Below are positions 162 to 59,398 of a stretch of 59,398 bases of DNA, piece by piece. The notes beneath the pieces were generated by a model. The model searched no databases and had not been told where the DNA came from. It saw only the letters and a list, made by a program, of their open reading frames with translations. How positions within the stretch are numbered: position 1 is the stretch's first letter; the number at the start of each line of letters is the position of its first letter. The stretch lies in IMG/VR virus record IMGVR_UViG_3300017985_000016, positions 1 through 59,398 of that record, one strand, 5' to 3'. The stretch is from a virus. Its lineage: Duplodnaviria; Caudoviricetes. Both the position numbers and the translations under genes were made by a program.

Positions 162-383
162 CTATTGTGCATCGTAATAGGTTTTGTCTAGTTCCCCAGT
201 ACTTGGGGGTTGACTAATTTTACGACACTTAATATATGTCTGTCTTGGGTTTGCACCAGACGTAGTGTAAGTTCTCACTCCACCACTGATAGTACCAGGC
301 GTATCTGAGTAAGTATCCGCTCCAGTTGCAGCGTTGTCATACTCCCAAATTCCACCAGTGCCTGGCACAACAACCCAAGCCAT
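162..383 (-). CDS. Small hypothetical protein (73 aa) in the prohead-core position
   Basis: ORF coupled to the upstream gene by a TAATG overlap at 383. It lies between portal and protease. No recognisable motif. Confidence 0.7.
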   Translation of the reverse strand: MAWVVVPGTGGIWEYDNAATGADTYSDTPGTISGGVRTYTTSGANPRQTYIKCRKISQPPSTGELDKTYYDAQ

Positions 384-904
384 TAGTCGTCACTCTCTAC
401 CGATTCACCGTAACCATAAGATGCAGCATAGTAGTCATAATCATCCGAATCTCTATAACCCGAATTCATACGTTTCGATCCCTCTGCATATGCGTGTAGA
501 GTTTTCATTTGACTGAACGCATATGCAAGTTTGTTTTGATACCATTCTTCTGGGTCACCGCCCATTTCAAGGTAATCCATGATTTCCTCGGCAGCATAAC
601 AAATGAATTCTAGTTGACGTTTCATCATAGGAACTTCTTCTGCAGGGTTCTCTTGGAGATCTTCAGAATTGTCTTCTACATCAACGTCTTCTTTATATGC
701 TACGTCATACGCTTTTTCGTCTTCACCCGCAACGTAATCGGAAAGTCGTTTAATTCTTGACTTGCCTGGAATGTCACCCGAAAACTGTTCTGGTTCCGCT
801 ACTGGATGGTCAATGACCTCAACAGTATGTTGATTCCAATGCTTTAGTTCTTCAGGGTTATTTGGCATTGCAACCTCTGATACTAAGTCCTTAAAAGATT
901 TCAT
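383..904 (-). CDS. Acidic putative prohead core/internal head protein (173 aa)
   Basis: Occupies the position of T4 gp67/gp68. N-terminus MKSFKDLVSE resembles the T4 internal-protein capsid-targeting sequence (MKTYQEFIAE). Very acidic. Confidence 0.6.
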   Translation of the reverse strand: MKSFKDLVSEVAMPNNPEELKHWNQHTVEVIDHPVAEPEQFSGDIPGKSRIKRLSDYVAGEDEKAYDVAYKEDVDVEDNSEDLQENPAEEVPMMKRQLEFICYAAEEIMDYLEMGGDPEEWYQNKLAYAFSQMKTLHAYAEGSKRMNSGYRDSDDYDYYAASYGYGESVESDD

Positions 905-935
905 TGTTCTGTTCCTATTAAATTTGTTGTAGTTT

Positions 936-944
936 TATTTATTA
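936..944 (-). promoter_or_regulatory. Late promoter variant (TAATAAATA)
   Basis: Plus strand tatttatta immediately after the gp20 stop, about 30 nt upstream of the next ATG. Confidence 0.55.
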
Positions 945-2468
945 CTATTCAAATTCGTCTTCGGCGTTACCAAAGATTTCCTTTTCGTCTTCAATTACCT
1001 GAAGTTCGTCCTTGAACTCTTCTTCAGACATTTGAAGGATATTTTTAACCACCCATTGACGTGAATAATAAACACCAACATGATCTTCAACGTCACGAAG
1101 CGTTGTCATACGTTCACGAATAATCTCTGACTGTTTAAGTTCTTCAAAGTAATTGTCTTTGACAAAGTCATAACGAATTTTGTTTTTAATCTCCGCAAAC
1201 TCTTCTGGACCCATGACGCCTTTGAAGATAAGTTGTTTCTCCAAAATGATGTTAAACAGGTTAGAAAAACGTGCACGGACACGACGAATGAATTTACCAA
1301 ATTTAAGTTCGTCACGTGTAATCTCAGAAGTACGACCAAATGTAGCCATAGTTTCTGGTTCAAGTCTTGAAATCGGAACCTTCAAAGACTTATAAACTTT
1401 TTTCAAAAAGTATTGCATGTTCTCATCAGTAGAAAGAACCTGTGCACCGCCACCTACAAGAGTATCAACCTCAGTAGATCTTTCACCGCCACGACGAGGG
1501 AACCAGAAGTCCTCTGTCATTGTCATCATCTTTTTTGCGTCTGTGATTTCGCCAGTTGCAGAGTTGTACTGCAACTTGTTTTTATGACGAACCATCATAT
1601 CACGCAAATATTGTTCTGCTTTTGCTTTAGGAAGGTTACCCACATCGATGTAAAATATTCTACGTTCTGGTGCACGAGTCAGTGCATAGATAATCGTAGC
1701 ATCTTCTAACATACGAAGTTGGTTCAATGGTTTGATTGCAGGATGCAAGTGACCAAGAACCATAGAGTTACTTTCATTCATAATGCCTGAAGTAACACGT
1801 GCAACAGCGTCTTTTGAAATTCTATGTTGGTTTTGTTGTCCGTTTCCGCCTAGTGTGTTTGAAGAATTTCCGAACCCCTGATCAGAGTACAAGAAGTATT
1901 CGTTCTTCACCTTCTTAGTTGGCACACCAGAAACGTCTTTTTCTTTTTTATCAATTTCTCTGACAAGTTTGATCTTGCGTGGATCTACATAACGTAGTTC
2001 TACAACGCCTTTTTTTAGATCTTCTTCGTCGATAATGATATGAAAGTTTAGTCTTCCATCAACATAGAATCTACTGAATAGATCATATGCATTATTTGTA
2101 AAGTCAAGAAGAGAAAGAACATTGTCAAACTCTTCTGTAATTTTTTCTTTAATTTTATCTGGAACATCATCAAGTTCGTCTAGTACAATTTCTACAACTT
2201 TATCATATACATCCACACTGATTGCTTCGTTGACCACTTCTTCTAACGCTTGAGCGATCTCAGGTTGTAAAGACATACTACGATATTTCGTAACAAGTTC
2301 AGATTCATTTTTGGCATTACTTTCCATGTCAAGCATGGTGCCATAAAACCCACCCAGTGCGTTACCAACTGTAATCGCACCGTCATCATTAGAAGGCTCA
2401 ACAAAGGAGACAGTCTTTGACTGCTCCTCGTTTGAGTCTCTTTTGATTTCAAAACCAAATAATTTCAC
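945..2468 (-). CDS. gp20: Portal vertex protein gp20
   Basis: Hallmark motifs LFGF, YVDGR, NQLRMLEDA..IY..TRAPERRIFYIDVGNLPK.KAEQYL, EDFW.PRR.G..TEV.TL, EITRDELKF.KF. Confidence 0.98.
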   Translation of the reverse strand: MKLFGFEIKRDSNEEQSKTVSFVEPSNDDGAITVGNALGGFYGTMLDMESNAKNESELVTKYRSMSLQPEIAQALEEVVNEAISVDVYDKVVEIVLDELDDVPDKIKEKITEEFDNVLSLLDFTNNAYDLFSRFYVDGRLNFHIIIDEEDLKKGVVELRYVDPRKIKLVREIDKKEKDVSGVPTKKVKNEYFLYSDQGFGNSSNTLGGNGQQNQHRISKDAVARVTSGIMNESNSMVLGHLHPAIKPLNQLRMLEDATIIYALTRAPERRIFYIDVGNLPKAKAEQYLRDMMVRHKNKLQYNSATGEITDAKKMMTMTEDFWFPRRGGERSTEVDTLVGGGAQVLSTDENMQYFLKKVYKSLKVPISRLEPETMATFGRTSEITRDELKFGKFIRRVRARFSNLFNIILEKQLIFKGVMGPEEFAEIKNKIRYDFVKDNYFEELKQSEIIRERMTTLRDVEDHVGVYYSRQWVVKNILQMSEEEFKDELQVIEDEKEIFGNAEDEFE

Positions 2469-2485
2469 TTTAATTCATCCTATAA

Positions 2486-3019
2486 TTATGAAGTAGAAAT
2501 ACCAGTCGATCCCTCTACTCTCCAGAAGTCGTATTGGAACGTAACGGTAAACTCTTCGATTTGATCTGTAGAACTCCAATCCAATGCAATTTCACTTACG
2601 TTAATTGGGTACATACCCTCAAAAATGTAAGTTCTAAGTGCGGATCCGTTCTTCGAATATTGTGTAATCAAACCATTAGATTTATAGTCTTGTGGAAGAG
2701 AACGAACGTTTGCATCATGTGATGCGATGCTGTTCATCCATGCTTCCATAGCATTACGCACAATAAAATCTTCGTCATTGATAATTGTAACTGTCCAATC
2801 AGCGAACGTTCTGTCCCCTGCATACTTAACTTCTCGACCAAAGTAAGGTACGGTATATGCCCCGATAGATGATTCGGGAATGCCCGCTGCCCTTGCCATG
2901 AATGGTACTTTGAAGTCCGCTGCAGGTACGACTGGGTTCGTGATCTGACATTGGAACAGGGTGGGACGTGCGCCCCCACCTGTCAGTTCAGATTTAAACT
3001 CGTTGATATTAAAAGCCAT
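2486..3019 (-). CDS. gp19: Tail tube protein gp19
   Basis: GGARPTLF, PYFGREVKYAGDRTFADWTVTIINDEDF, EEFTVTFQYD. Lies between sheath and portal, with SD AGGAGAGG. Confidence 0.97.
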   Translation of the reverse strand: MAFNINEFKSELTGGGARPTLFQCQITNPVVPAADFKVPFMARAAGIPESSIGAYTVPYFGREVKYAGDRTFADWTVTIINDEDFIVRNAMEAWMNSIASHDANVRSLPQDYKSNGLITQYSKNGSALRTYIFEGMYPINVSEIALDWSSTDQIEEFTVTFQYDFWRVEGSTGISTS

Positions 3020-3032
3020 ATCTTACCTCTCC

Positions 3033-5054
3033 TTAAGTCAACTGTCCAACGATCTCGTCGAATTCGACACCAGACCTTGTTGCGACAAATGTAAGTTCAA
3101 TTACGTTAATAGAACGTGCAGGTTTGATGAAGATACTCGCTTTAAACATGTTCGAGTCAATGACTTGTGGGGTATTGACAGTTTCATCTGACACCACACG
3201 GAAGTCAATGATACCACGTCTACCTTGAATTTCACGCAGGAACGGTTCAACAATATTGCGGAACTGTGTCTGTGTAAACTCGTCATTAAGTTCGAACAAG
3301 AACGATTGTGCTGCAGTTGCAATTGATTTTTCTATTGCAATGAACAATCTGCGAACATTGATGCGATCAAACGCACTTGCAAAACCTTGTCCAGTCTTAT
3401 CACCGAATAGCAAAATACCTTGACCTACTTGTGAAATAACTGGGTTGACATCCGAACTATAAAGTTGATCTCTTTGATCTTTGTTCGGATTGAATGCAAG
3501 TTTAATAACATTCTTAATCACACCCTTACGATAACCTGCAGGAGATTCAAATGGTTGTACACGTGAACACAACCCTGCCATGTCACCGTTCAATGGAGTC
3601 CAACGGTATACATCATTGTATTTGTCATAACGATATTTATACCCAGAGTCTAGAACCATGTAAGAACTTGATGTGAGTTTATTGCGGTATTCAATGACAT
3701 TAGTCAACTTAGTATTTGTTTTAAGTTCATCAACAACTGCTTCTTTTGAAGGCGAAACGAATGCAACGCAATCTCGTCTACTGTCTGCAATGTTGCCGAT
3801 GATATAGTTTGCGATCTGACCATTATCATCACCTTTACCCTGTAGGACAAACGAGATGTCAATTTCATTCGCACTTGCGAAGTTGTCATATGCAAGAGCA
3901 GTTGGTCCAAACGAAGCAGAACCTTCTGCAGTGCCATCTGCACCATTTGACATTGATTCGTATTCTGAAGTACCCGCAAGGAATGCAGCTGTATTTGCAA
4001 CATTAACCCAAGAACTTAGATTTTCGATCACTGTTTCATAGTAGTTAGTTCTACCATCTGAAAGTGTTGCTCCTGCAGTTGTTGAAATGTTTTCGAATTT
4101 TTCTAGTACAGTTCCTGCATCACCACTAACATCCCCAGTGCGGTCAATAACTGCAACGTGGTAGTTGTTTGTGTCTGGTGCTTTACCAAATAGACTTGCA
4201 TGTTTCCACTTACGCTTCATTGAAAGTTTATTCAACTCAGTTTCTGCAAGTGTATACTTCTTCTCGAAATTGATTGTGTATTGGTATGTTCCAAACAATG
4301 CTGTGTTGGATGCATCGTCTCCTGTTAGTACAGATCCATTCGAACCGATGATCTCTTTAGTGAACGACGAAACTACAAGGTTTTGATAACCTACCGAGTC
4401 ATTACCAATAGTAACAAGGTCACCATCACTTAGATCAGTGATGTTTGTTGCTACTGACTGGAATGTTGTTGTCTGAGTTGCAAAACCAATTTCTTGTGTT
4501 ACCTGTGCAGCGGGCGTACCATCTCCACCAAACAAAACAGTTTGATTTTCAATGTCGCCTGCATCAAAGATATCTGCCTCGTATGCGCCCGCTTTAACAT
4601 ATGCAACATCAATTGCATTACCAAGCGCACCCACGTACTTCGCTTCAAAAGCACCATAAGTAGAGTTTGCACTATCTACAGTACCAATTGATCCAGGCGT
4701 TACACCTTCGACATATCCGTTTGCAGATGTGTTTGCATATGCAGTATCTGCATCGAATAATACGATTGTGTCACCATCTGCTTTCGCAGATCCTGTTGTT
4801 TCTGCACGACGAACATACAATGCATTAGAATATGCAAGATAGTCGGACGCAGTAAACCAAGTTTCATAGTTGCTATCAGTTGGTTTGTGGTAACGATCCA
4901 CAAGTTGATTTTCTGATGTAATAAGAATTGTTTCGTCGGTAGGACCCCATCCAAACACCCCCGCAATTGCAGCAGGAGGCGTTGCAATGGCTGGGACGAC
5001 TTGGCTTGCGTCTACTTCACGAACGATTACTGAAGGACTTACGGAAAAAGCCAT
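3033..5054 (-). CDS. gp18: Tail sheath protein gp18
   Basis: SPSVIVREVD, FGWGP, KYRYDKYNDVYRWTPLNGD.AG, SPAG..KG, GDKT...SAFDRINVRRLF, FELND.FT, IKPARSIN.I.L.FVA. Confidence 0.98.
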   Translation of the reverse strand: MAFSVSPSVIVREVDASQVVPAIATPPAAIAGVFGWGPTDETILITSENQLVDRYHKPTDSNYETWFTASDYLAYSNALYVRRAETTGSAKADGDTIVLFDADTAYANTSANGYVEGVTPGSIGTVDSANSTYGAFEAKYVGALGNAIDVAYVKAGAYEADIFDAGDIENQTVLFGGDGTPAAQVTQEIGFATQTTTFQSVATNITDLSDGDLVTIGNDSVGYQNLVVSSFTKEIIGSNGSVLTGDDASNTALFGTYQYTINFEKKYTLAETELNKLSMKRKWKHASLFGKAPDTNNYHVAVIDRTGDVSGDAGTVLEKFENISTTAGATLSDGRTNYYETVIENLSSWVNVANTAAFLAGTSEYESMSNGADGTAEGSASFGPTALAYDNFASANEIDISFVLQGKGDDNGQIANYIIGNIADSRRDCVAFVSPSKEAVVDELKTNTKLTNVIEYRNKLTSSSYMVLDSGYKYRYDKYNDVYRWTPLNGDMAGLCSRVQPFESPAGYRKGVIKNVIKLAFNPNKDQRDQLYSSDVNPVISQVGQGILLFGDKTGQGFASAFDRINVRRLFIAIEKSIATAAQSFLFELNDEFTQTQFRNIVEPFLREIQGRRGIIDFRVVSDETVNTPQVIDSNMFKASIFIKPARSINVIELTFVATRSGVEFDEIVGQLT

Positions 5055-5105
5055 ATTTTTCTCCTTTGAATAAATTTATTTTTTATCAGTTCATATCACT
5101 GTTTT

Positions 5106-5113
5106 TATTTATA
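5106..5113 (-). promoter_or_regulatory. T4-type late promoter TATAAATA upstream of gp18
   Basis: Exact tatttata on the plus strand in the gp17-gp18 gap. Confidence 0.8.
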
Positions 5114-5124
5114 AAAACAAAAGT

Positions 5125-6753
5125 TTAAAATATCCAGTCGTCGTCACCATTCACAGGTTGGAATCCGCCTTGAGGCAAATCTTCCCCCACATCGATGAAT
5201 CCAAAGGGTAATAATCCTTCTTCAATTTCTTCATCTGTCTTCTCTCTCAACATCATCATGGTATTGATATCCGTCATGTCTTTAAAGTATAACTGATCCG
5301 TCAACCACGAGAAAATTACCAAATTCATTACCAAATCATCATGTGAACCAGACTCCGCTTCGTAAGAGCTTCCTTTTTTAGAAAAACGTGATAATTCCTG
5401 AATTGTATTAAAATCTTGTAAAATCAGTTGGTTCTGTTCTACCAACATTTTCAAAATAGAACATCCAACAGATTTTACACTTTTTGTTGTTCTTATGCCA
5501 TTGTCAACGCCACGGCCAAACCCCGCTGATATCCTCTTGCCCGCTCGACCTGCGTTCTCTGTATATAGAATGTTTTCATAACCATAATCCATTAATAAGA
5601 CATCTGAAACCTGTTCACCAATGTCATTAATTTCCACCAGTACTGCTGCTTCATGGTACAACATTCCTACTCTATATATAATTGAGGCGAAATCAACTGG
5701 TGTTATCATATTATCTCTAAAGACACAAACTTGTTTGTAAGGCATCTCAGTGATGTCAATAACACAGAATGTAGAATAGTCTAATCCTTTACCACGAGAA
5801 ACGTCACAAGTCATCACATATGTGCGACCTTCTTCTGGTCTTTCATACTGGAATAGATTGTCTTGTTCTGCAATAGGACGTGATGGTGCGAGTTCTTTCA
5901 ACTTTGCACCATTAACCAATGTACCAGAACTTCCCAGAAACTCACAACAGTATTCCTGTCTGAACTTCTGTTCGTCATAATCAAGAGCTTCCAAGGTTTC
6001 TTGGTGCCACTTTTCATCTCTGCCAGGCACGTCATTCCACATGACCTTGACAAATTCGTATCCGTTGGTTCCTTCTTCTGCACCCTTGCAGGTTTTCCAG
6101 AAGTGGTTCAAACCGTTTGGTGTGGATGTCATCAACAGTTTTGTCGACTCACCAGATGAGATTGTAGGATACACAGATGCGAAGAACTCATCATATCCTT
6201 CAATAAATGCAACCTCATCCAAATACAGGAAGTTAACAGATTTACCACGGATTGCACTAGAGGATGTTGTACCTGCGAGAATTTGACACCCATTCTCTAA
6301 TGCGATATTACCTTTGTTCCATTCTTCGACGCCCTGTTGCATCCACTTAGGTAACGCTTCGTATGCAAGTTTGACTCTCGCCATAACTTCTCGTGCAGCG
6401 TCACCTTTGTTTGCAAGGATTGCAACCGTCTTGAATTCGTTGAATAGAATGTAGTGAAGAATGACTGCAGTTGCAGTTGTTGTCTTACCAGACTGTCGTG
6501 CAGTTAGAACTGCGACACGTCTATGGTTAGCAATTTTATTTGCGATATCTTCTTGGTAATCATACATGTCAAAAGGCACGAGACCTTTGTCAACGTGTAC
6601 GATTTTGATATAATTCTTTGCGAAGTAGATGGGATCTTGGGCACACTTCATATACTCTTTGAGCATCTCTTGTGTGTATTCTATTTGTTCTCCAACCCTT
6701 TTAAGGTTGTTGTTACCAAGATACCCTCTCGTTAAGGCATCAATTATTGGCAT
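5125..6753 (-). CDS. gp17: Terminase large subunit gp17
   Basis: YLGN.NLK, Walker A RQSGKTT, AILANK, Walker B YLDEVAF, TSTPNGLNHF, nuclease DVSRG.GLDYS and HDDLVM. Start moved to ATG 6753 after GGTGAGG. No intein evident. Confidence 0.97.
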   Translation of the reverse strand: MPIIDALTRGYLGNNNLKRVGEQIEYTQEMLKEYMKCAQDPIYFAKNYIKIVHVDKGLVPFDMYDYQEDIANKIANHRRVAVLTARQSGKTTTATAVILHYILFNEFKTVAILANKGDAAREVMARVKLAYEALPKWMQQGVEEWNKGNIALENGCQILAGTTSSSAIRGKSVNFLYLDEVAFIEGYDEFFASVYPTISSGESTKLLMTSTPNGLNHFWKTCKGAEEGTNGYEFVKVMWNDVPGRDEKWHQETLEALDYDEQKFRQEYCCEFLGSSGTLVNGAKLKELAPSRPIAEQDNLFQYERPEEGRTYVMTCDVSRGKGLDYSTFCVIDITEMPYKQVCVFRDNMITPVDFASIIYRVGMLYHEAAVLVEINDIGEQVSDVLLMDYGYENILYTENAGRAGKRISAGFGRGVDNGIRTTKSVKSVGCSILKMLVEQNQLILQDFNTIQELSRFSKKGSSYEAESGSHDDLVMNLVIFSWLTDQLYFKDMTDINTMMMLREKTDEEIEEGLLPFGFIDVGEDLPQGGFQPVNGDDDWIF

Positions 6754-7330
6754 TACCCTCACCTTTAATCATACTTAGTAGGTCTGCAGTAGAGACGATC
6801 AAGTTATTATTCGTTACATTGGTTTCAGGACGGCCATACTGTTCTTCGTCTTTAACTAATTTCTTTTGGGAAGAAATATTTACAAACTCTTTGTTTGCAT
6901 CAAGTAATGTTTTCATAAGTGTCGAAACCACCTCGAATGCACGAGGTGATTCCGATTGTTTGGCGATCTCGACCATTTCTTTTACAGCATCATCGCCTAG
7001 TTCTATGATACTTTGGACGTTAGATCTGGCGAGTTCGATGTCATTTAAATTTTCATCGTTTGTCGTTGAAAGTGATCGTACCTCTCCTTCAACAATTTGC
7101 AGATCGTTCGCCTCCGTCTGCGATCCTTCTGTTTGCGAATTTTTCTCCAATTCAGGTTCCGCCAGTACCTGTGCGTTCGGTTGTCTATCCTCGTCAGTTT
7201 GACTTTGTTCTCCACTAGATCCGAGTCCTCGTAGAGATCCAACATTCTCATGTGGTTCTGTAGTGTCTTCTGCTTGAGTTTCTGCAAGTGAACGTACCCC
7301 CATTGATTGTGAAATTTTATCATCTATCAT
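6740..7330 (-). CDS. gp16: Terminase small subunit gp16
   Basis: ESPRAFEVVSTLMK and NVTNNNLIVSTADLL motifs, located between gp15 and gp17. Start taken at the ATGA overlap with the gp15 stop (7330). Confidence 0.9.
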   Translation of the reverse strand: MIDDKISQSMGVRSLAETQAEDTTEPHENVGSLRGLGSSGEQSQTDEDRQPNAQVLAEPELEKNSQTEGSQTEANDLQIVEGEVRSLSTTNDENLNDIELARSNVQSIIELGDDAVKEMVEIAKQSESPRAFEVVSTLMKTLLDANKEFVNISSQKKLVKDEEQYGRPETNVTNNNLIVSTADLLSMIKGEGNANN

Positions 7331-8148
7331 TCTGTATTCACCTCTATAAGATTGATGACTCCCCAATCGTCGTCAAATTCAATCTGTGTGTATGGTATAG
7401 TATCATCAATATCAGTTGTTGGTTCGCCGTTAGCGGTCAAACCAGGCTGTGTTGTGAATCTGGTTTCCCAGACCTCGTCAATATCGGCGGTTGGACTTGT
7501 ATTTTGTGTTAACTTTACATCTACAAATTTGATGACTGGTTTTGTTCTATTTGGTCCAAAGTACCACGCTTTCATAGTAAAACTTAAAGTATAAAGAACA
7601 CTCTGCCTTTCGGTGAAGTCTCCTTCATACACTTCCTCTGTGCTTACACTGTTTAAAACAAGAGGAACATCAATCGGTTCGAGATTATCCATCAACTTTA
7701 CCGTTGATGTGAAATCGGGGTTAAAGAAAGGAACAATCTGTTCCATAATTTTTGCAGCATCTTCTGAGTACTTAGTCATGATGTACAAAGAGAATTCCAA
7801 ATTATATGGAACACCTGCGTAAACATACCCACGACCATTTGAACCATCTTCAATGGTTTGTTTTCGGATCTTGGTTGTGGGATTAATTTTTCGTTCGCCA
7901 TCATATGTCATGCTGTTCAATTCGAATGACATGCGAGCCAAAGTGATTGCAGTTGGACGATCAAGATTTGCATCCTGTGTTATCCGTGCAAGAATTTTTT
8001 GGAAGGGCGCATAAGAAATAGGAACTATCATTTCCTGCTCTGTGTTAGCATCGATAGTTCTTTTGATTTTAAGTTGATTGAAATATGTCCCAAAAATTGC
8101 GACATACTTTCTTGTTGTTTCGTTGTAAAAATAATTTGCTATTGCCAT
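7327..8148 (-). CDS. gp15: Tail sheath stabiliser/tail terminator gp15
   Basis: YFYNETTRKYVAIFGTYFN, VPISYAP.QK, PYNLEFSL, QIVPFFNP, YEGDFTER, YTLSFT.K.W.FGP. Confidence 0.95.
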   Translation of the reverse strand: MAIANYFYNETTRKYVAIFGTYFNQLKIKRTIDANTEQEMIVPISYAPFQKILARITQDANLDRPTAITLARMSFELNSMTYDGERKINPTTKIRKQTIEDGSNGRGYVYAGVPYNLEFSLYIMTKYSEDAAKIMEQIVPFFNPDFTSTVKLMDNLEPIDVPLVLNSVSTEEVYEGDFTERQSVLYTLSFTMKAWYFGPNRTKPVIKFVDVKLTQNTSPTADIDEVWETRFTTQPGLTANGEPTTDIDDTIPYTQIEFDDDWGVINLIEVNTE

Positions 8149-8858
8149 TAGGTATTCGCCTTAGGTGGTTCATCATCTGCGAAATTGATCGTCTCACTAA
8201 ACGGATCCATTTCTGTGAAGTCAATGATGTCGTCTGCAGTTTTTTCGAAGAAGAAGTTGTCAGCAATTGGATCTGCGTTTGCAAGTGCCTCCAATGTATT
8301 TGTATTTGAAGTACCACCAACTCTTGTTGTGTAATCTTTAAGAATTTTGTCAATATGGTTGTAACCAGTTTCAATTCTTTCGTTACTGTACTCTAACAAT
8401 TCACAACGTAAGTCATATACTTGTAGTGCGCCACTTTGATAGAACACACTCTCATGTTCAACGTACATGACTTTAAATAGTTTACCATTGATTGGGAAGT
8501 AAATAATATCCCCTTCTAATGGACGTTGTCTTGTCGAATCTTCTTTAGTGACATATCTTTCAAATGTTCTAATAGCCACAGAGAAAGTAACTTGATCTCT
8601 GATCTGTAGTCCAAACTTAGACAGGAAGTCACCCTCTCCCTCAAATCCATCGACACTCTTGACATACATCTCCATCTTATATACAGTATTATATAGAGGT
8701 GTGTCGTCTTCGTTAAGGATGTTGTCTACGGACCCTGCGAAACGAGGCAAGTATTCAATGTCAACGCCATAGATTTTAATCGACTCAATAACTAAGTCGT
8801 CAATGAGTTGTTGTTCATTGAAATGTGTGGTGTTGCGGAAGAAGGTTGAAGTTGCCAT
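8148..8858 (-). CDS. gp14: Neck protein gp14
   Basis: EQQLIDDLVIESIKIYGVD..YLPR, GFEGEGDFLSKFGLQIRD, RPLEGDIIYFP, FYQ.G. Confidence 0.95.
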   Translation of the reverse strand: MATSTFFRNTTHFNEQQLIDDLVIESIKIYGVDIEYLPRFAGSVDNILNEDDTPLYNTVYKMEMYVKSVDGFEGEGDFLSKFGLQIRDQVTFSVAIRTFERYVTKEDSTRQRPLEGDIIYFPINGKLFKVMYVEHESVFYQSGALQVYDLRCELLEYSNERIETGYNHIDKILKDYTTRVGGTSNTNTLEALANADPIADNFFFEKTADDIIDFTEMDPFSETINFADDEPPKANT

Positions 8859-8861
8859 GTT

Positions 8862-9605: not shown

Positions 9606-9642
9606 GACGTGTTCCCTGTGAACTTCTAATTAGATTTATAGA

Positions 9643-9650
9643 TATTTATA
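9643..9650 (-). promoter_or_regulatory. T4-type late promoter TATAAATA upstream of gp13
   Basis: Exact tatttata directly after the stop of the cytidylyltransferase gene. Confidence 0.8.
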
Positions 9651-10409: not shown

Positions 10410-10411
10410 AC

Positions 10412-11638: not shown

Positions 11639-11639
11639 A

Positions 11640-12674: not shown

Positions 12675-12707
12675 GACACCTCCATAATTAATGTTTCAAA
12701 TGCTAAT

Positions 12708-12736
12708 ATTATATCACGTCAATAGTGTCTTGTCAA
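12708..12736 (-). promoter_or_regulatory. Perfect sigma70 promoter TTGACA-N17-TATAAT with extended -10 (TGn)
   Basis: Minus strand reads TTGACA agacactattgacgTGa TATAAT. The -35 is at 12731-12736 and overlaps the stop of the upstream gene. The -10 is at 12708-12713. Confidence 0.85.
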
Positions 12737-47032: not shown

Positions 47033-47223
47033 TACTCTTTTTCCAATTTAGCTATTCTCTCGCACATATATGAAAGAGTCTCTTGAATCTCAGTAACATC
47101 AGACTGAAGTTTATCAATTTTTCTATAATAATTTCTTTCCATCTTGTATTTATTAAGGGCTTGGGTATCCGTAGACAAAATTGCCTTCGAATTCGAATCC
47201 CTTATTACCCTTTCCTGTGTCAT
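47032..47223 (-). CDS. Small coiled-coil protein (63 aa)
   Basis: RD..SKAILSTD..AL..Y followed by a heptad tail. Coupled to both neighbours (ATGA and TAATG overlaps). A typical small gene following VrlC-like genes. Confidence 0.7.
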   Translation of the reverse strand: MTQERVIRDSNSKAILSTDTQALNKYKMERNYYRKIDKLQSDVTEIQETLSYMCERIAKLEKE

Positions 47224-50200: not shown

Positions 50201-52637
50201 GTTCTTCACCAAGTAAAGGTGGTCTAGGATTAATCTCTTCGGCACCTTTAACGTAGTTAAATTGACCATAAGAGTCAACCGTAATAACATCATAACGAGG
50301 CAAATAATATTCAATATCTGCAGACGCATACTGAGAAGTTGCAGGTAGAGTGTAAGTACCAGTAAATGATGGTGCTGCCGCATCAATCGTATTCTGAATG
50401 GCTACAGTCATGATAGGCGCAGATGCACCGCTAGTTTCAGTGTAACTCATTGTTGACTCTTTATCAACCTGTGGTCTGAAGTCTAAACAATCACGTAGAT
50501 TGTATTTGTATCCAGATTCTGAAACATATACAGGGATCTCACTCTCATCCACGCCTGTGTATGACGCAACGTGATAGAAACTTTCTGCACCAACTGGTTT
50601 AATGGTTTCAAAAACTTTAATGTTAATTTCAAGTTGTTCGTTGCCAGGACGTGGACGACCTTGAATATATTCAATATAAGAAAGATCGTAATATGCATCT
50701 TTTTGATTTGGATTCAAACGGAAAGACTTAGTAAAGTCGTCTCCTGCAGCGTTTTTAATCGAAACAATTTCATAAACATCTGGGAAACCCAAAGAAAACT
50801 TTCTACGAGTTGTAACGTGATCTAGGCGCAGCCAAGTATCTCTTGCAGACTTAGTGAATACTTGTGCATCAATTGCACGGTAGTCGTAGTAACAAATAAC
50901 GCTAACCCCATCTGATACTACACCATTTGGTAGAGATACAGTGAGGTTTGAACCACCCAAAGAAGTAGAAGTACCTGTAGGAGTAACCTTAGTACCTGTG
51001 GACGTAACCACCAAAATATTATTTTGATTAAGATTAAAGTCAGTGCCCACACCTGTTTGCGTTGTAGTAATAGTGAATTCGTTACTGGTCACAACGTGAG
51101 TAGACTGTCCCCTGATTGGAACAATTAAATCGTCTTCATAAACATCATACAGATAATCCATACCAGTGTCGAAAATATATGCACGTTTGTCCGTACCTTT
51201 TAGAGTACTACCAACCGAAATTTCACCAGTTGTTGCCCCATCTATCTTCGCAACATCTACAAATCCTTTACCTGCATTCATAGAAATACCGAAGAGATAT
51301 GCACGATCTTCTGTCAAGTTAGAGACAAAACACTCGCCAATCTTTGTGTTAGTACCATCAAGAAGATCTTGTGGTGATGATAGATCAATATTAACGTGTC
51401 CAGTAAACCCTGTAACATCAACATAGTTTCCATAGTTAAATGAAATTGGTTGTGATGTTTGGATTTCTGTATTAGATGGAGATTCTATTTCGAACGCTTG
51501 TGTGCCAACAGTCTCTGCACGATAACCTTTTACATATGCAGCGCCTGGATCTACTAGTACTTCCAATAATGCATTGTTGGCAGGGTTTCTTTCGACAGTA
51601 ACAGGAAAATCTCTTACGATATAGTTACCAGACTCTTCGTATGTGCGTCTTGCAGTAACATCACCAAGGACATTATACTGAGAAATGTCACGAATACGAA
51701 CTGCATTTCCGTTTTGATAACGAATTAGTGAGAAGAATGTGGAGTCTGCTTCAGCTTCTGCCGCCGTAAGTTTGGTTAGTATTGGAACGAGTTTAAGTCT
51801 ATCTGCGCCTGGCGCATTCTCGTTAGTTGAACCGTTTGCGTTATCATACAAGGTATCATCTTGAAGATATGAAATCAAAGATTCATTAATTCTAAATCCA
51901 ACTGATGCATCCGCAGGTTCATTGCTGTATTTTTCTACAACAAGAATTTGTTCGTCTGTATAAAGGAAATGTCCTTTTTGGAATAGAATGCCTGGCGAGG
52001 ATTGAATACCAAAAGAAGATCCTGTTGGGGTGTATGATGCACGTGCCACGTTGATTGAATCCACACCAGTTTCAACAGGAGTCAGTGGTTCGACTGTGCC
52101 TGCTTTATATGTGTATTTGTCAATACGGATTGTCTCACCTGCAGTAAATTCTTTCGCACTTCCTTCAGAGTTCAAGTATCTGATGAAGAAAGTGTTTAGA
52201 TTTGGTGGACGAGTTGTAAACCCTGCAGAAGCATCAATGACTTGTGCACTAACTTGCGAGGTTTGACCGTAAAGAACATAAACAATATCTACCTCAGTTT
52301 CAACTCCGCCTAAAGTATCTTTGGTGGTAGTTCTATTACTGATATACGATTCTGGATTGAAATAGGTTTGATTTAATGTTTCTGAAGCTTCACGATTTTC
52401 AACCTTTACAAATTTAAGATCACTTAGGTTTGTGAAAACACAACCTTTAACAATACTACCTTCTTTAAAGATGTTGTCACCAAATTGTTCAACTTGGTTT
52501 TGTAAAGAAGTTTGTAACTGTGTAAGTTCACGTGCCTGAACTGAGTAGCCAGGTTTGAACAACACACGATAGAATTGCTTTTCGATGTCAAAGTCATCGA
52601 AGTATGGTGATACATTTAGATCTGTATTAATAGGCAT
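47220..52637 (-). CDS. VrlC-like (DUF4815-type) large baseplate/virion protein (1805 aa)
   Basis: LNVSPYFDDF....FYRVLFKPG.SVQARELTQLQ..LQNQVEQFG..IFKEG, APGADRLK, ARRTYEESGNY, YTMKDIG.LE.RIE.L.YYTSL, RFKNGFIVD.F, DPLAQTF. Confidence 0.88.
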   Translation of the reverse strand: MPINTDLNVSPYFDDFDIEKQFYRVLFKPGYSVQARELTQLQTSLQNQVEQFGDNIFKEGSIVKGCVFTNLSDLKFVKVENREASETLNQTYFNPESYISNRTTTKDTLGGVETEVDIVYVLYGQTSQVSAQVIDASAGFTTRPPNLNTFFIRYLNSEGSAKEFTAGETIRIDKYTYKAGTVEPLTPVETGVDSINVARASYTPTGSSFGIQSSPGILFQKGHFLYTDEQILVVEKYSNEPADASVGFRINESLISYLQDDTLYDNANGSTNENAPGADRLKLVPILTKLTAAEAEADSTFFSLIRYQNGNAVRIRDISQYNVLGDVTARRTYEESGNYIVRDFPVTVERNPANNALLEVLVDPGAAYVKGYRAETVGTQAFEIESPSNTEIQTSQPISFNYGNYVDVTGFTGHVNIDLSSPQDLLDGTNTKIGECFVSNLTEDRAYLFGISMNAGKGFVDVAKIDGATTGEISVGSTLKGTDKRAYIFDTGMDYLYDVYEDDLIVPIRGQSTHVVTSNEFTITTTQTGVGTDFNLNQNNILVVTSTGTKVTPTGTSTSLGGSNLTVSLPNGVVSDGVSVICYYDYRAIDAQVFTKSARDTWLRLDHVTTRRKFSLGFPDVYEIVSIKNAAGDDFTKSFRLNPNQKDAYYDLSYIEYIQGRPRPGNEQLEINIKVFETIKPVGAESFYHVASYTGVDESEIPVYVSESGYKYNLRDCLDFRPQVDKESTMSYTETSGASAPIMTVAIQNTIDAAAPSFTGTYTLPATSQYASADIEYYLPRYDVITVDSYGQFNYVKGAEEINPRPPLLGEEQLVISEIYVPGAPILSPKEASQQGKREYAVRARPKGTKRYTMKDIGALEDKIERLVYYTSLNQLEQETNNLTVLDENGLSRFKNGFIVDPFNDMSLANTRDANFNAAVHFSQRVMTPAVQTFPLDLKYKTSSGATAFPAPSPTEEPKAATLSRNAHVSIINQPYATGYRNCVSNFYNYQGKAQVSPEYDATYDTTVNPVEIDFQKPFVDFAEALQKFIPLTDVRIDTNEFSAANQAALRRARANGGTVTFKDTIGSINVGSETKLVGDFVSNFQFMPYMASRDVSIYVTGLRPNTVHHFFFDRVSVDQHIIPGTNVNSVGQVGRQGVFGQTVTSDENGVLRAVFKIPEETFFVGERMLEIVDVDTYDSIESGATSRASVAYRAYSFDVTKTGLSTRMPSTNVETRSSNRSVTFRPPPPRGDPLAQTFFIKKGMGRGSNSVMASKIDVFFKRKATSTLTNGGGINGVTVMLREVVNGYPSSEIIPFSSVHLQASEVNISDDASLATTVEFHAPIYLETEKEYAVVIQPDANDPGYLVFTSKVGGNDLTPGATQGRAVVQDWGDGVLFTSTNNSAWKSYQDEDLKFNLYRHDFNESIGSVTMTNRDHEFLRLTDLAGAFRNDEVVYQSVGAAQTAGMANANNTITRLSGNAFDTIYSVGDFVKINLTANTGVLDIFEVTGVTPDTITTSKQSSQVWSGSEVTPIVAGRVCHYDLTDPNTLYLENSTARAGFVFSNGSTITGADSNSTAEITSIDNINLSYVQPFIQRANDSVSKTTLAGEFIPPANVGTTYNLPMKFNDNNTFSKEGVVVYSKSNNVNGSLKFDVTVNMSNGGNSTSSPFIDVEISKLLAYKYDITNVSGETANFISKTVELAEDFDAEDFQLILSAHRPAGTTIKTYIRAQNTFDSQDFADVDWVELELFEGVETFSTSGNLEDYREFRYRISDANKDGLGVYQYTSSAGAFKTFRKFAVRIELLSPNVYSAPIVKDYRGIALT

Positions 52638-52649
52638 TCTATCTGTTCC

Positions 52650-54284
52650 TTAAAATTCCATCACGAATTTAAATTCTTCTCGTGAGTTTTCTGTTCTTGG
52701 CAGTGGGAAGAAGTCTTCGAAAAAGTATATTCTTCCAGATCTTTGCACATAAGTTGGTTCTACTACGTTATTCGCTATAGGTGTATTTATTCTCATCAAC
52801 TGACCTGTTTCGTTGCGCAAATTCAAAGTCAAATCTAGTGAGTTACTTGAATTCGCAAGGTTTTGATAAGGACCCATGTATTCTGCGAGGAATAAAGTGT
52901 TACTTGAATAATCGATATCATGAACAGTTGCTTGGAAAACAACTTCGTTATCAGAGTTTAACTGTTGCACAGTACCGTTGACTTCTGTCTTATCATAGTC
53001 ATCAGTAGTAACTGCAATTCTATTATCGAATACTACTGGTGTGTTTGCACTTGGTATTACATTCCAATCAGAATCTCTAAATTCTGGATTCTTTACTAAT
53101 CCAATAGTAGAGTATTCATTATTTGCACCAATTAAAAGATTATCCTCTCCTGTTATATATGCATAAACTCCGAAGTGATGACAATGAAATTCATCGATCA
53201 AATCGTGTGCATGTCCATCAATTGGGGAAAGAATTGGTCTCAAATCAGCACGTGTATCTGTTCTTGTTGGATCGCTTGGATCAAAATCGTAAAGTGGATC
53301 TACAACTCGTGCAACAATACTGTTATATGAAGAACCACGGTTCAACAAAGTTGTACTTCTAATTCTACCTAAATTATCAATAACTGGAATTGCAGATGCG
53401 CCAGTTCCGTCTCCTTCGATTTTGATCTTTGGTAGGATTTGCCATCTTGCGTTTGCAGACACACCCGCAGCTACTGGATCTCTCTCAACTCTAAATTCAA
53501 CAAGACCAGTTGCAGTGTTATAACTGTAGTATTCAATGTCAAACAAATTTGTCACAGCGTTGTCATTGTTTGTGACATAAAGGGTTTGACCATAGTAATA
53601 ATAAAAGATTTGAGAAATATCTTCATCGTCTGGTCTACCAATCATCACACCAGAAGCGGTTGGTGCTTGATCAAGCGAACCTTCAACCTTTGTGTAACCC
53701 AAGTTATCGTCTAGGTTTGTCACAAAGATATCTGAGACTTCTCCACCAGTTGTGTTTGCAACAGGATCTACAACAAACTCACTACTTCTAATTGGAATGA
53801 AACCAAGTGCATTATAAGCTTCGAATTGCAAATCTGATAGATCATAAATGTACTTCCAAAGATATCCATCCGCCGTTTGATAAATCTGACTATCTGTGTT
53901 TGCATTCCATGCAGGTGGCGCTTGAACTGGTGCACCATCGTTGTTATACAGACATTTAAATATTCTGTAGTCACCAGTATCGTTGTTTGTTGGACCAACT
54001 ACTGCATAGAAGTTTTGGTCTTCTAAGTTAATTGCATCGTCGTACTGAGTATAGACCTGATCTCTCTGCCAAGGATAATACTTGATCATAAAGTGAACGT
54101 CATCAGGATCCACTTTTTTACCAAACAATATCTTTTCTTTGAATTCATTTTCTGAAAATCTTGAATTTTCAGCGTCGAGACGTTCGATACTAGAACACAT
54201 GATATAGAAGTCATTGGACTTGATGTCTTCAATGAACAATCTAGTAGTGTCAGATTTAAATTTTGTTGTTAAAATCTCTGCCAT
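52650..54284 (-). CDS. gp8: Baseplate wedge subunit gp8-like
   Basis: KK....V......W.....Y.QYDD, FY......Y..FKCL.N, DGYLWKY.Y, I.IEGDGTGA.A, P.DGH, GLVKNP, SG........P..R.....EEFK.V.EF. Confidence 0.85.
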   Translation of the reverse strand: MAEILTTKFKSDTTRLFIEDIKSNDFYIMCSSIERLDAENSRFSENEFKEKILFGKKVDPDDVHFMIKYYPWQRDQVYTQYDDAINLEDQNFYAVVGPTNNDTGDYRIFKCLYNNDGAPVQAPPAWNANTDSQIYQTADGYLWKYIYDLSDLQFEAYNALGFIPIRSSEFVVDPVANTTGGEVSDIFVTNLDDNLGYTKVEGSLDQAPTASGVMIGRPDDEDISQIFYYYYGQTLYVTNNDNAVTNLFDIEYYSYNTATGLVEFRVERDPVAAGVSANARWQILPKIKIEGDGTGASAIPVIDNLGRIRSTTLLNRGSSYNSIVARVVDPLYDFDPSDPTRTDTRADLRPILSPIDGHAHDLIDEFHCHHFGVYAYITGEDNLLIGANNEYSTIGLVKNPEFRDSDWNVIPSANTPVVFDNRIAVTTDDYDKTEVNGTVQQLNSDNEVVFQATVHDIDYSSNTLFLAEYMGPYQNLANSSNSLDLTLNLRNETGQLMRINTPIANNVVEPTYVQRSGRIYFFEDFFPLPRTENSREEFKFVMEF

Positions 54285-56268: not shown

Positions 56269-57609
56269 TTATGCGTCTTCCAGTTTCAGTCCAGTAATAG
56301 TCACAGTAACTGTGCCAGTAGTACCAGAACGGTTGGTTACTCTCACAGGAATATCATTTTCTGTTGGTCTATTATCGACAAAACCGAAGATCGCTGGGGT
56401 GATGACGAATGTCTCCGCCGCCGTTGAAACAAATTCTGCAACGACTCCGTCACCCTCTACTGGATCTGTACCTATTGGACGACTTACATCTGCAGTACGT
56501 GCTGCATCGTCTTTATAAATTCTAACTCTTGCACCTTTGTCGACTTGAACACTATACAAACAGTATGATACACCCAAGTTTGCAAAATCAATGTTTGTTT
56601 CTGCATCATCTGCAATACTTGCAGAGGTTACTGCTTGTGTAACACGTGATGGTGTAAATCCACCAGACGCAGTTGAGTTGATTGTGATTGAGTCTGTGCC
56701 TGTATCAGTTTGAATTGTAATATTCGAACCTGCAACAAGGTTTAAAGTGTCTGCAGTAGAATCTGCAACAACACTAGGTTGACCTGCAACAGCAATAGTA
56801 GAGAATGTATTCGCAGCTCCACCAGTACCACCAGTCGCAGTAGATACGAATGTGATAGTATCATTTGCAGCGTCAGTGGTAATAGTCATACCAGTACCTG
56901 CAATAAATGTCAAGGTATCTGTTGTAGCATCTGCGACAACATCTGTTTGACCTGCGACACTAATTGTACCAAATGTATTTGCACTACCGCCTGCTGCAGC
57001 TGCATTTACCCATGCAGAACCATTGTAACTTAGAACTTCTCCACTTGCAGGAGCAGTAATAGTAACATCTGTAAGATCGTTGATTGCACTTGCGCCTAAA
57101 GAAATGTCTTTAAATTCAAATATTCCATTTCCATTGGCAGTAAGAACTTGACCAATAGTACCATCTGCAATACCATCAAGATCTAACAACCCAAACCCAG
57201 AATTGTTTGCATCTGTCAACATTCCAGTGTATGCAACGTTTGCAAGACTGTCTGCATATGAAGTTACATCGTTATTGGCATTATCAGTTAGAAGTTTGCG
57301 CCACTGACCGTGAGCATAGTAAAGTGCACCAGTCGAGTGAACGTGTGCGATACACCCATGATAAGTACCCGCACTTAGTGCATATAAATCCGCCTCAGTA
57401 TCAAGTAAGAAAGATATTTTGTTGTGAACATTAAGAACTTGAAGTTCCTGATCACTGTTGACCATATTAAGTAGTGTATCATTACCCAATCCACCCACTG
57501 CACGATAAATCTCATTCGTATTATCGTTAATTTTATCCATGGCGACACGTAACGGATCACCTGTTCCATCATTGGGTGCTTGACCTATATCTACTGTTTG
57601 CTTTGCCAT
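56269..57609 (-). CDS. gp9/gp10-like baseplate fibre-connector N-terminus fused to repeated adhesin-like modules
   Basis: MAKQTVDIG..PNDGTGDPLR.AMDKIN.N..EIY is the gp9/gp10 N-terminal motif. Also L.DV.I..P..G.VL.YNGS.WVN and 2x ANTF.TI.VAGQ..VVAD...DTL...AG. Confidence 0.7.
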   Translation of the reverse strand: MAKQTVDIGQAPNDGTGDPLRVAMDKINDNTNEIYRAVGGLGNDTLLNMVNSDQELQVLNVHNKISFLLDTEADLYALSAGTYHGCIAHVHSTGALYYAHGQWRKLLTDNANNDVTSYADSLANVAYTGMLTDANNSGFGLLDLDGIADGTIGQVLTANGNGIFEFKDISLGASAINDLTDVTITAPASGEVLSYNGSAWVNAAAAGGSANTFGTISVAGQTDVVADATTDTLTFIAGTGMTITTDAANDTITFVSTATGGTGGAANTFSTIAVAGQPSVVADSTADTLNLVAGSNITIQTDTGTDSITINSTASGGFTPSRVTQAVTSASIADDAETNIDFANLGVSYCLYSVQVDKGARVRIYKDDAARTADVSRPIGTDPVEGDGVVAEFVSTAAETFVITPAIFGFVDNRPTENDIPVRVTNRSGTTGTVTVTITGLKLEDA

Positions 57610-57636
57610 TTTTTCTTCCTAAAAAGTGTTTTTAAT

Positions 57637-57644
57637 TATTTATG
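57637..57644 (-). promoter_or_regulatory. Late promoter variant (CATAAATA) overlapping the gp7-like stop codon
   Basis: Plus strand tatttatg about 30 nt upstream of ATG 57609. Confidence 0.5.
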
Positions 57645-59398
57645 TAACTGTAATTGTATTGTTCATACTACCATGGTTTGCACACTGATAGTAATATGTT
57701 CCTGCAACTGCAGTCCACTGAAGAACTGCACCACCTTGTCCAGTTACATTTGGCAACTGGTTACCTGTTCCCGCACCTTGTGTCGTCTTCAGATAGAACG
57801 GATGAGAACTTTGTGTACCACTGTCAATGTTAAATTGAACCCTATCACCTACATTGAATACTAATGGTGGTTGTGCACCATTGATGTAGTTTGTGGATCT
57901 ATCTGCACCATTAATCACATAATCAAATATTGGTGTACTAATATTAATAGTGTGCGTTGGCGAGAAGTTCAATGATGTATCGTTAAGTGTATAATCTGGT
58001 GATGTATACACAACAGGACCAACACCGCTACCAGTTCTTAGTGTAACGTGCCAAGTTTCTGCGCCTTCCGTGAAGTTGTCTGCAACTGCAGCCACAGAGA
58101 AACCACCGACACCATTGTTCATGACAATATTACCAGATTGGAAGGAGAAGTCACTATCACGATCTGGTCTTGGACCAATCGCCCAATACAATGGAGTACC
58201 ATTTGGCCATCCAGGCACAGAGACACTAAATGTTTTTGTTGCACCCTCATCCAATGATGTTGAACCAATTGGAGTAACGGTGTAAGTATAACTACCACCA
58301 CCACTAACAGATGAGTCATTATCAGATGTGACAACTTCTGTATCTGAAAAGATATTAGAAAAGTCAACAGTTAAGTTGTTAATATCACCAATATCTAGTG
58401 GTGATGTAGACTCACCATCGTCATTAAAGATACGAAGGAATCTTTGTTTTACACCAGATTTTTCAGGACCTGCAGCAAACTTTCTTTGGTAATAGAATTT
58501 ACCAAACATTTTTGTACCCGCAGTATGCATGTTTTCTCTTAAGAAGTCCTCATATACAGGTTGTCCCAACATACTACGGATCTCGTAAGAATACTCTTGG
58601 TAGTAATCACTATCTTGAATTCTCATAGAAGAGTCAAAATACGCATAAGTATTTGCGCTATCTACTTCATAACCATTCAAGTGAGAAGTAAAGTCTGACC
58701 AATACCCCTCTGTAACACCTTGTGTTTCTGCAGTAATTGTACCCTTCGCAACACGAATATTGTTATTTGCAAGATATGCAGTTCCACCATTAACATATCC
58801 AAATCCTGAGTTGAATATTTTCGCAGATGCAATCTTACCTGTAGCGAACTGAACTTCCGCATCAATTTCTGCGTTGTCACCAAATCTTCTAGATTCGTAA
58901 TCTCTTTCAACTCCTAAGATATTAAATCTTTGAGCGTTAGGTCTGATGACATCGTTTGTTCCTGTAAATCCATAGTATGCATAAGGCGTGAAAGTAACCG
59001 AACCAACTTGGGTGTTACTACTACGAACAATACCTCTAACATTTGTGTTAGCTTCTGTGATAATTTCACCAATATTAAACGAACCTGCAGATGCAGGAGT
59101 AGTCAACTGAATAATCTGGTCCTTACGATCAAAGATCATCATCTGACTATCTTGTGCAATCGCCCAAACATCGTTAGTATAGTTTACGCCTGGATCGACA
59201 TTTCTAAAGATGTCAATTCTACCAATGTCGAAAGGTGTTAAGTCAAACGCTTCGTTCAATGGTGTTGCAAGTGTAACTGGATTTGCAGTACCAGACATTG
59301 CTTGTCCTGCAGGCGGAACATCGTTGTAGTTAGAAGAGTTAATTAAAACATTAACGAATGGTTGGATTGGATCTGTGATGAGAGAAACAGTTTCGACA
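57640..59398 (-). CDS. Baseplate wedge initiator gp7-like, 3' part, with appended Calx-beta-like and cupredoxin-like domains (5' end outside the window)
   Basis: The frame stays open to the window edge (VETVSLITDPIQPF...AMSG). Contains SGFGY, RIQDSDYYQEYSYEIRS and H.AGTK.FG (gp7-like), DEG..KTF.V...D..TEGAET..VTL (Calx-beta-like), and HPFY...YYYQCANHGSM. Confidence 0.75.
   Translation of the reverse strand, partial: VETVSLITDPIQPFVNVLINSSNYNDVPPAGQAMSGTANPVTLATPLNEAFDLTPFDIGRIDIFRNVDPGVNYTNDVWAIAQDSQMMIFDRKDQIIQLTTPASAGSFNIGEIITEANTNVRGIVRSSNTQVGSVTFTPYAYYGFTGTNDVIRPNAQRFNILGVERDYESRRFGDNAEIDAEVQFATGKIASAKIFNSGFGYVNGGTAYLANNNIRVAKGTITAETQGVTEGYWSDFTSHLNGYEVDSANTYAYFDSSMRIQDSDYYQEYSYEIRSMLGQPVYEDFLRENMHTAGTKMFGKFYYQRKFAAGPEKSGVKQRFLRIFNDDGESTSPLDIGDINNLTVDFSNIFSDTEVVTSDNDSSVSGGGSYTYTVTPIGSTSLDEGATKTFSVSVPGWPNGTPLYWAIGPRPDRDSDFSFQSGNIVMNNGVGGFSVAAVADNFTEGAETWHVTLRTGSGVGPVVYTSPDYTLNDTSLNFSPTHTINISTPIFDYVINGADRSTNYINGAQPPLVFNVGDRVQFNIDSGTQSSHPFYLKTTQGAGTGNQLPNVTGQGGAVLQWTAVAGTYYYQCANHGSMNNTITVT

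Follow-up and report, generated by a model that had tools for sequence, protein, structure and literature searches.

Flank-conditional avoidance of CCWGG in a predicted T4-like cyanophage structural module and its relatives

We examined the CCWGG word (CCAGG or CCTGG) in the IMG/VR virus record IMGVR_UViG_3300017985_000016, a single contig of 59,398 bp (hereafter the window) whose gene content identifies it as the structural module of an uncultured T4-like myovirus, probably a cyanophage. We found that every CCWGG site of the window carries a G directly 5' or a C directly 3' of the word (hereafter flanked): the avoidable sites have all been removed and the unavoidable ones have all been shifted into a GCC/GGC context. 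It is close to certain that restriction-type selection acts on CCWGG here, with an escape that depends on the flanking base. The rule is conserved in relatives through turnover of the individual solutions, it extends to other motifs, and the escape is linked to phage genotype.

The first-pass annotation of this sequence had reported about 45 CCWGG sites, each preceded by G or followed by C, and our exact scan returned 45 sites, 45 out of 45 flanked, with the annotated positions correct within one base (Table 1). It had also placed the flanked share expected by chance well under half, in agreement with a trinucleotide background of 0.21 flanked (binomial p = 5e-31). The 5' and 3' flanks were not independent but negatively dependent (Fisher p = 5.9e-5), the base at position -2 was unconstrained and there was no constraint beyond the single flanking base; either flank alone sufficed, which is the pattern of a symmetric 7-bp word. 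These counts were compared with two null models, a synonymous-codon shuffle (runs of 1000 and 300) and a shuffle that also preserves codon-junction dinucleotides (60 runs), and paired expectations below refer to the first and the second model in this order. Unflanked sites were expected 53.3–53.5 times under the synonymous-codon shuffle (standard deviation 5.2–5.6, minimum 39–40) and 48.7 ± 4.3 times under the junction-preserving one (minimum 39), and none was observed. Flanked sites were three-fold enriched over the synonymous-codon shuffle (45 observed, 14.7–15.0 expected), and the doubly flanked GCCWGGC was found in 13-fold excess (12 observed, 0.8–0.9 expected). The bias that the annotation described did not disappear under codon-preserving nulls, and HCCWGGD words, rather than being many, were absent (0 against 53.5 / 48.7).

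In-frame Pro-Gly codon pairs, in genes of the minus strand, accounted for 43 out of the 45 CCWGG sites. Pro-Gly is encoded as CCN-GGN, and a CCNGG word is therefore unavoidable there. All 45 Pro-Gly pairs of the window were flanked, as anticipated by the earlier description of Pro-Gly as CCW-GGC or placed behind a G-ending codon. In particular, the Gly codon GGC was used in 29 out of 45 cases after Pro and in 150 out of 1763 elsewhere, and a G stood directly before the Pro codon in 29 out of 45 Pro-Gly pairs and at 63 out of 626 other Pro codons. Gln-Gly pairs also behaved as had been claimed: Gln was encoded by CAA 45 times and by CAG never after a C-ending codon, and by CAG in 49 out of 159 cases otherwise. 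Within the collagen-like open reading frame (ORF), all 40 Gln-Gly pairs after a C-ending codon were CAA-GG, and CAG-GG was present only after non-C bases (37 out of 122).

We then considered a close relative represented by two IMG/VR records, G001 (119,238 bp) and G006 (117,770 bp), whose ends overlap by 25,379 bp (99.99% identity) on one side and by 72 bp on the other and which were joined as one complete, closed genome of 211,557 bp. It aligns collinearly with the window, and the nucleotide identity is roughly 66–85% (about 75%). All its 115 CCWGG sites were flanked (60 of them on both sides), as were all its 22 CCGG sites, and it contained no CGCG and no GGWCC. None of the 111 CCWGG sites was unflanked in the 18 IMG/VR loci with portal identity of at least 80%, some of which overlap one another. 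Two complete, more distant relatives, G008 and G009, served as controls without the flank rule, with 144 out of 209 (69%) and 108 out of 151 (72%) CCWGG sites unflanked, respectively. Intermediate lineages followed the rule partially (2 out of 14 and 2 out of 15 sites unflanked) and avoided none of CGCG, CCGG and AGCT. Finally, 43 Pro-Gly sites of the window could be aligned to the relative and 29 of them were Pro-Gly there too; the flank solution differed at 11 of these 29 orthologous positions and all were flanked, so the rule has been kept by selection and not by inheritance alone.

The protecting G flank was not restricted to CCWGG. The window contained four CCGG sites (41.0 / 19.5 expected), all of them flanked (Table 1), and no unflanked CCGG (29.4 / 13.4 expected). 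CCATGG was flanked in 7 out of 7 cases in the relative, compared to 15 out of 36 and 7 out of 19 in the controls, and CCTAGG in 3 out of 3. In the cultured Synechococcus phage S-SSM7, recorded with WH8109 as its host, the flanked sites were 196 out of 206 for CCWGG, 27 out of 27 for CTGCAG and 5 out of 5 for CTCGAG. All these 6-mer counts are small. The survivors thus share one fixed short context that rescues unrelated recognition sequences, as in overlapping modification, and the palindromes are depleted against codon-preserving nulls (HCCWGGD, CGCG, CCGG), as in restriction-site avoidance by phages.

Other words were absent from the window altogether, namely CGCG (71.7 / 46.7 expected), CCCGT/ACGGG (32 / 25 expected), and CGATCG, GACGTC, GGTACC and CGTACG (7–13 expected each). 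Among these, CCCGT is asymmetric and resembles the target of a Type IIS- or Type III-like enzyme. The purged set was not the same in the relative: GGWCC was found 57 times in the window and never in the relative (zero-order expectation there 210), CGTACG 0 and 22 times, and CCCGT/ACGGG, absent from the window, accounted in the relative's 119-kb record for 13 out of 415 CCGT/ACGG words counted on both strands. The RGCY words of the window (AGCT, AGCC, GGCT, GGCC) were at 0.12–0.21 of their zero-order expectation, and the codons AGC, GCC and TGC saw hardly any use, at 2%, 4% and 12% of the codons for the respective amino acids. CTGCAG, a word not avoided in the window's lineage, was over-represented (92 sites against 36.7 ± 5.1 in the codon shuffle), with 88 sites in one frame as (Thr/Ser/Pro/Ala) NCT-GCA-G and only 17 out of 92 flanked by G/C; TGCA counted 748 (479 / 565 expected).

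The word CGWCG followed a flank rule of its own, with a 5' T or a 3' A at each site (Table 1). CGWCG without this flank was absent from the window (33.0 / 23.4 expected), and the relative followed the rule at 138 out of 138 sites. The T/A flank rescued no other CG-word (CGCG and CGATCG remained at 0), and for this reason the CGWCG rule may have another origin than the G-flank rule. An effect intrinsic to the enzyme may account for it. We rejected TCGA methylation as its cause, as TCGA was present in only 25 out of 49 sites, and a general GA or CGA mark is unlikely, with CGATCG, GACGTC, TCGCGA and TCCGGA all at 0.

We propose that DNA-cutting agents, most likely Type II-like restriction enzymes of the host, would read CCWGG and, separately, CCGG, CGCG, CGWCG and other words, and would select strongly on the phage. 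Every CCWGG that synonymous codons could remove is gone; at Pro-Gly, the preceding codon ends in G or the otherwise rare Gly codon GGC is used, so that each survivor overlaps a GCC/GGC triplet. This triplet would be modified after replication, at saturation and with about three-base specificity (GCC, probably GCY), and the modification would block cutting; one modified side would protect enough and two sides more. A mark overlapping GCC/GGC is the most economical cause because this G flank has the same rescuing effect on several palindromes unrelated to each other and because escape depends on phage genotype. We favour a DNA mark directed to GCC/GCY as the best-supported mechanism of the escape, at slightly better than even confidence. 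The first-pass annotation had interpreted the pattern in the same way, as restriction-type selection with a neutralising flank and a GCC/GGC mark, and that part is supported; the writer genes that it predicted were not present in the genome of the relative. With considerably more reserve, we suggest that an undescribed GCC/GCT mark could occur in many marine T4-like phages, including that of the window, where it would let unavoidable sites stay, and that it could be written by a DruA-family, Mom-like GNAT enzyme encoded in the replication block.

More specific marks were tried as the protecting one and rejected. GGCC or RGCY methylation does not fit the base before the protecting G, which is C or T in 78% of the window cases, and a plain GC mark is unlikely with CGCG absent. 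A Mom-like SASNY modification of the central adenine of CCWGG was also discarded, as ACCAGGC and ACCTGGC both occur, so that the protecting flank goes with either orientation of W.

The candidate writer, and the only correlate of the flank rule, was found in the relative, just downstream of the DNA polymerase gene, as a 368-amino-acid DruA-like protein (L068:2819-3925) that matches DruA/DUF4338 (PF14236) over residues 92-194 only (31.6 bits, cut-off 27, E 1.3e-7). Its gene belongs to an island (L068:1900-9500) situated between the genes of the DNA polymerase and the sliding clamp, together with four ORFs that matched no Pfam family, a cytidylyltransferase-like gene and one for a UDP-glucose/GDP-mannose dehydrogenase. 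The gene is kept at 76% identity or more in the best 80 of 190 matching IMG/VR stretches, has homologues in 31 cultured-phage records (41–51% identity, among clamp-loader genes) and is absent from the controls G008 and G009. The S-SCSM2R homologue was annotated by its depositors as 'methylcarbamoylase mom'. The AlphaFold model of the relative's protein is confident (predicted local distance difference test score 91.7) and has a GNAT fold, and VIA-align placed Mom of phage Mu (8bv8) nominally at the top (Z 10.3, 182 aligned residues, root-mean-square deviation 4.2, identity 15%). A short-context writer of GNAT fold is plausible because Mom is a GNAT enzyme with a three-base target, and the DruA-like gene is a candidate only. 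We regard a DruA-family GNAT enzyme as a lead to the writer that is rather less probable than the mark itself.

The escape was linked to phage genotype in cultured cyanophages. Most cyanomyoviruses sampled purge CCGG. Eight out of nine CCGG-avoiding cyanophages with the DruA-like gene keep survivors, and 40 out of 40 survivors were flanked (40–80 kb samples); in whole genomes, flanked CCGG sites were 37 out of 37 in S-CAM9 and 26 out of 26 in S-8S56. The phages S-H38, S-RIM12, S-M1, QB2 and S-SSM5, which lack the gene, contained no CCGG in their complete genomes (zero-order expectation 262–363 each) and no palindrome with a flank rule reaching 90%. The comparison of carriers (8 out of 9 with survivors) and non-carriers (0 out of 5) gave Fisher p = 0.003 without phylogenetic correction. 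According to the records, carriers and non-carriers were isolated on the same host strains, WH8102 for S-8S56 (carrier) and S-SSM5 (non-carrier), and WH7803 for S-PRM1, S-T4 and S-SCSM2R (carriers) and S-M1 (non-carrier). About twenty 6-bp palindromes were at or near zero in the five phages lacking the gene.

Several observations weigh against a GCC/GCY mark written by the phage, or against the DruA-like gene as its writer. The window itself contains no candidate writer gene in its 59 kb, and the complete genome of the relative contains no canonical DNA methylase or DpdA. In particular, G001 and G006 had no match to C5 (PF00145), N4/N6 (PF01555) or Dam-type (PF02086) methylases, although the first-pass annotation had predicted a C5/N4-type one, and PF00145 had no match among 20 cultured phages tested; the predicted DpdA was not recovered either (PF01702, 0 out of 5 records, including G001 and G006), and for QueC only a match below threshold was obtained (17.5 bits, cut-off 22), which was also present in a relative without the flank rule. 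Among the 50 + 84 + 22 ORFs of the relative scanned with Pfam, which lie outside its structural block and exceed a lower limit of 90-125 amino acids, no DNA methylase was named. No dnd/ssp-like genes were recognised, and a phosphorothioate-like backbone mark at the cut bond, an idea prompted by the cleavage positions of such enzymes, is only speculative. The structural match of the DruA-like model to Mom was nearly tied with ordinary GNATs (Z 9.8, 141–147 aligned residues), Foldseek returned weak GNAT matches only (Mom at rank 16, E 0.014) and a sequence search against PDB chains gave nothing below E 0.13. AGCC and GGCC were as depleted as AGCT and GGCT, and an RGCY-blocking mark on the first C of GCC is therefore unlikely. 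The counts behind the genotype association are small and phylogenetically clustered, those of S-M1 and QB2 being near-identical. S-SSM7 carries the DruA-like gene (SSSM7_173) and has no CCGG, thus the flank does not rescue all CC..GG words everywhere, and six cultured phages with the gene keep unflanked CCGG. Finally, a sister clade of 33% GC with the DruA-like gene (76–82% identity) has 362 out of 498 CCWGG sites unflanked, which could reflect an absence of CCWGG pressure there. In 557 kb of this clade we counted no CGCG, one CGWCG and 75 GATC (zero-order expectation 1619), and 58 of the latter were GGATC or GATCC, a G-flank rule on another word. In 40 kb of the Pelagibacter phage HTVC008M, GATC was flanked by G/C in 21 out of 21 cases.

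An alternative explanation does without any mark: the enzymes would fail beside an abutting G:C pair and their true targets would be 7-bp words, for example HCCWGGD and VCGWCGB. We consider it unlikely. EcoRII/PspGI-type enzymes cleave immediately 5' of CCWGG and Hpy99I immediately 3' of CGWCG, which would place the flanking base at the scissile bond, and cutters of CGCG and GGWCC, words that lack a flank escape, cut inside the site. This explanation also fits the symmetric 7-bp pattern with either flank sufficient and no further base constrained, the T/A flank that rescues CGWCG and never CGCG or CGATCG, as would be expected of a single enzyme, the partial CCWGG rules of the intermediate lineages and the relative's lack of a canonical writer gene. 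However, it would require a single G flank to stop a series of unrelated enzymes (of CCWGG, CCGG and CCATGG, and of CTGCAG and CTCGAG in S-SSM7), and non-carriers keep no G-flanked CCGG, even though some were isolated on host strains that also yielded carriers with 26–37 such sites.

It is improbable that the host makes the mark, by means of a methylase whose very short target contains GCC and which acts on phage DNA in every infection. Such a host enzyme would agree with the relative's lack of canonical methylases, and the motif data are blind to who writes the mark; on the other hand, phages from the same host strains differ in tolerating flanked survivors, and we know of no three-base host methylase. 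Slightly less probable still is that the cutter is the phage's own nuclease, directed against GC-rich host DNA, with its own sites purged. The relative encodes TnsA-like, PD-(D/E)XK and SNase-type nucleases, and CGCG is absent from 689 kb of 80 loci bearing the DruA-like gene, in two clades of different GC, which is unusually uniform for host-driven avoidance. Against this, the purged words differ between close relatives (GGWCC, CCCGT/ACGGG and CGTACG), a turnover that fits changing sets of host enzymes, and the flank rule would still need an explanation. It is very improbable that codon usage, amino-acid content or mutation bias produced the pattern without selection on the flank, since, even if deamination of methylated CCWGG would spare Pro-Gly sites (C to T alters the protein) and so fit the frame bias, both shuffles reject such an artefact and it leaves the three-fold flanked and 13-fold doubly flanked excesses and the flank changes at orthologous sites unexplained.

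The favoured reading, a mark on GCC/GCY, has partial parallels among known systems. Virulent double-stranded DNA phages likewise remove short palindromes by synonymous changes, with a purged set that varies between close relatives; here, in contrast, avoidance is conditional on one flanking base and the survivors are all-or-none. Overlapping Dam or Dcm methylation can block restriction sites, and there too protection requires that the bases beside the site complete the recognition sequence of another, unrelated modification; here the target would be only three bases (GCC/GGC or GCY), visible only through its evolutionary footprint.

Through CmoX-CmoA-CmoY, the Synechococcus phage S-B43, also a T4-like cyanophage, carries 5-carboxymethylcytosine at GC motifs (PMC12783734), a cytosine mark in a similarly very short G-C context. 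CmoX is described there as a C5-methylase homologue, and this family (PF00145) was without match in our relative and in the 20 cultured phages; moreover, a CmoX-like plain GC mark would cover CGCG, which is absent from the window. The precedent for GGC specificity that the first-pass annotation invoked is real: DpdA places 7-deazaguanine at GA and GGC in phage CAjan and at GA only in phage iggy, at more than 97% of the sites, and blocks only some enzymes (PMC10484667). These are near-saturating contexts of two to three bases, and GGC and GA match the protective contexts CCWGG followed by C and CGWCG followed by A. DpdA differs in that the relative has no TGT/DpdA match and only the QueC-like one below threshold, and in that GA rescues neither CCWGG nor CGCG here. 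Mom of phage Mu is a GNAT-fold, Gly-tRNA-dependent modifier of adenine N6 at SAS (PMC13219725), and shares with the DruA-like protein the GNAT core, as far as the predicted model goes, and with the proposed mark a three-base target. Mom modifies adenine; here the protective context lacks that base and the protecting flank is independent of how the central W is oriented, hence the target base would be C or G. In marine Myoviridae-like genomes, N4-methylcytosine has been reported at RGCY, CCWGG and GGWCC (PMC8919816). These are words avoided in the window's clade, and methylation and avoidance thus look like two answers to one pressure.

Among the papers listed by our literature searches there was no description of flank-conditional avoidance and none treated DUF4338 in cyanophages or DNA modification of S-SSM7, and a search for the flanked motif strings gave only primers and conotoxins among the matches listed. 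If the proposed model is true, sequence alone suffices to uncover a restriction pressure and, with it, the precise context of a concealed DNA modification, which would offer a cheap route to modified phage genomes in metagenomes. The writer would then be neither a methylase nor DpdA, DruA (DUF4338) would gain its first functional lead, and, were the DruA-like enzyme indeed the writer, the DruA family of Druantia type I defence loci would likewise be a DNA writer. S-SSM7, with the rule present at three unrelated sites, provides a cultured test bed. If instead the flank effect is intrinsic to the enzymes, the data would define restriction enzymes with unusual 7-bp 'not-G' specificities.

The window has 40.7% G+C and is 98% coding, with nearly all ORFs on the minus strand. 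PHROGs matches included portal, tail sheath, large terminase, baseplate wedge and tail-fibre proteins. The portal protein shares at most 51% identity with those of cultured phages, and a DNA similarity search of a cultured-phage collection gave no near match. Public runs that contain window DNA are labelled as salt-marsh and seawater metagenomes (assembled contigs). The close relative encodes plastocyanin, heme oxygenase, ferredoxin-dependent bilin reductase and HSP20, and these cyanophage marker genes therefore suggest a cyanobacterial host.

Table 1. Coordinates of word sites and predicted genes in the window.
Feature	Position	Strand	Remarks
CCWGG sites (45)	295..59193		each GCCWGG and/or CCWGGC; both flanks (G..C) 12, 5' G only (G..D) 15, 3' C only (H..C) 18, neither (H..D) 0
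CCGG sites (all 4)	16596, 31436, 38232, 44448 (span 16596..44451)		each GCCGG or CCGGC
CGWCG sites (49)	1282..54177		each TCGWCG and/or CGWCGA; second flank-conditional rule, different flank
Portal	945-2468	-	PHROGs
Tail sheath	3033-5054	-	PHROGs
Large terminase	5125-6762	-	PHROGs
Giant structural ORFs (3296, 2187, 3758 and 1805 amino acids)	within 13555..52637	-	hold 25 out of 45 CCWGG sites
Collagen-like ORF (1301 amino acids)	30424..34329	-	6 CCWGG sites
Gene	34787-46063		7 CCWGG sites
Gene	47220-52637		9 CCWGG sites

The G006 record of the relative also contains a large accessory block with two carbamoyltransferases, three radical-SAM proteins, DegT and class I/II aminotransferases, FkbM-type methyltransferases, a sulfotransferase and an APS-kinase-like gene. 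In the control genome G008 we found a different set of purged words, ATCGAT (0), ACATGT (1) and TTCGAA (4), against 74 for each; CATG was flanked by C/G in 337 out of 456 cases in this genome, which carries a C5 methylase gene.

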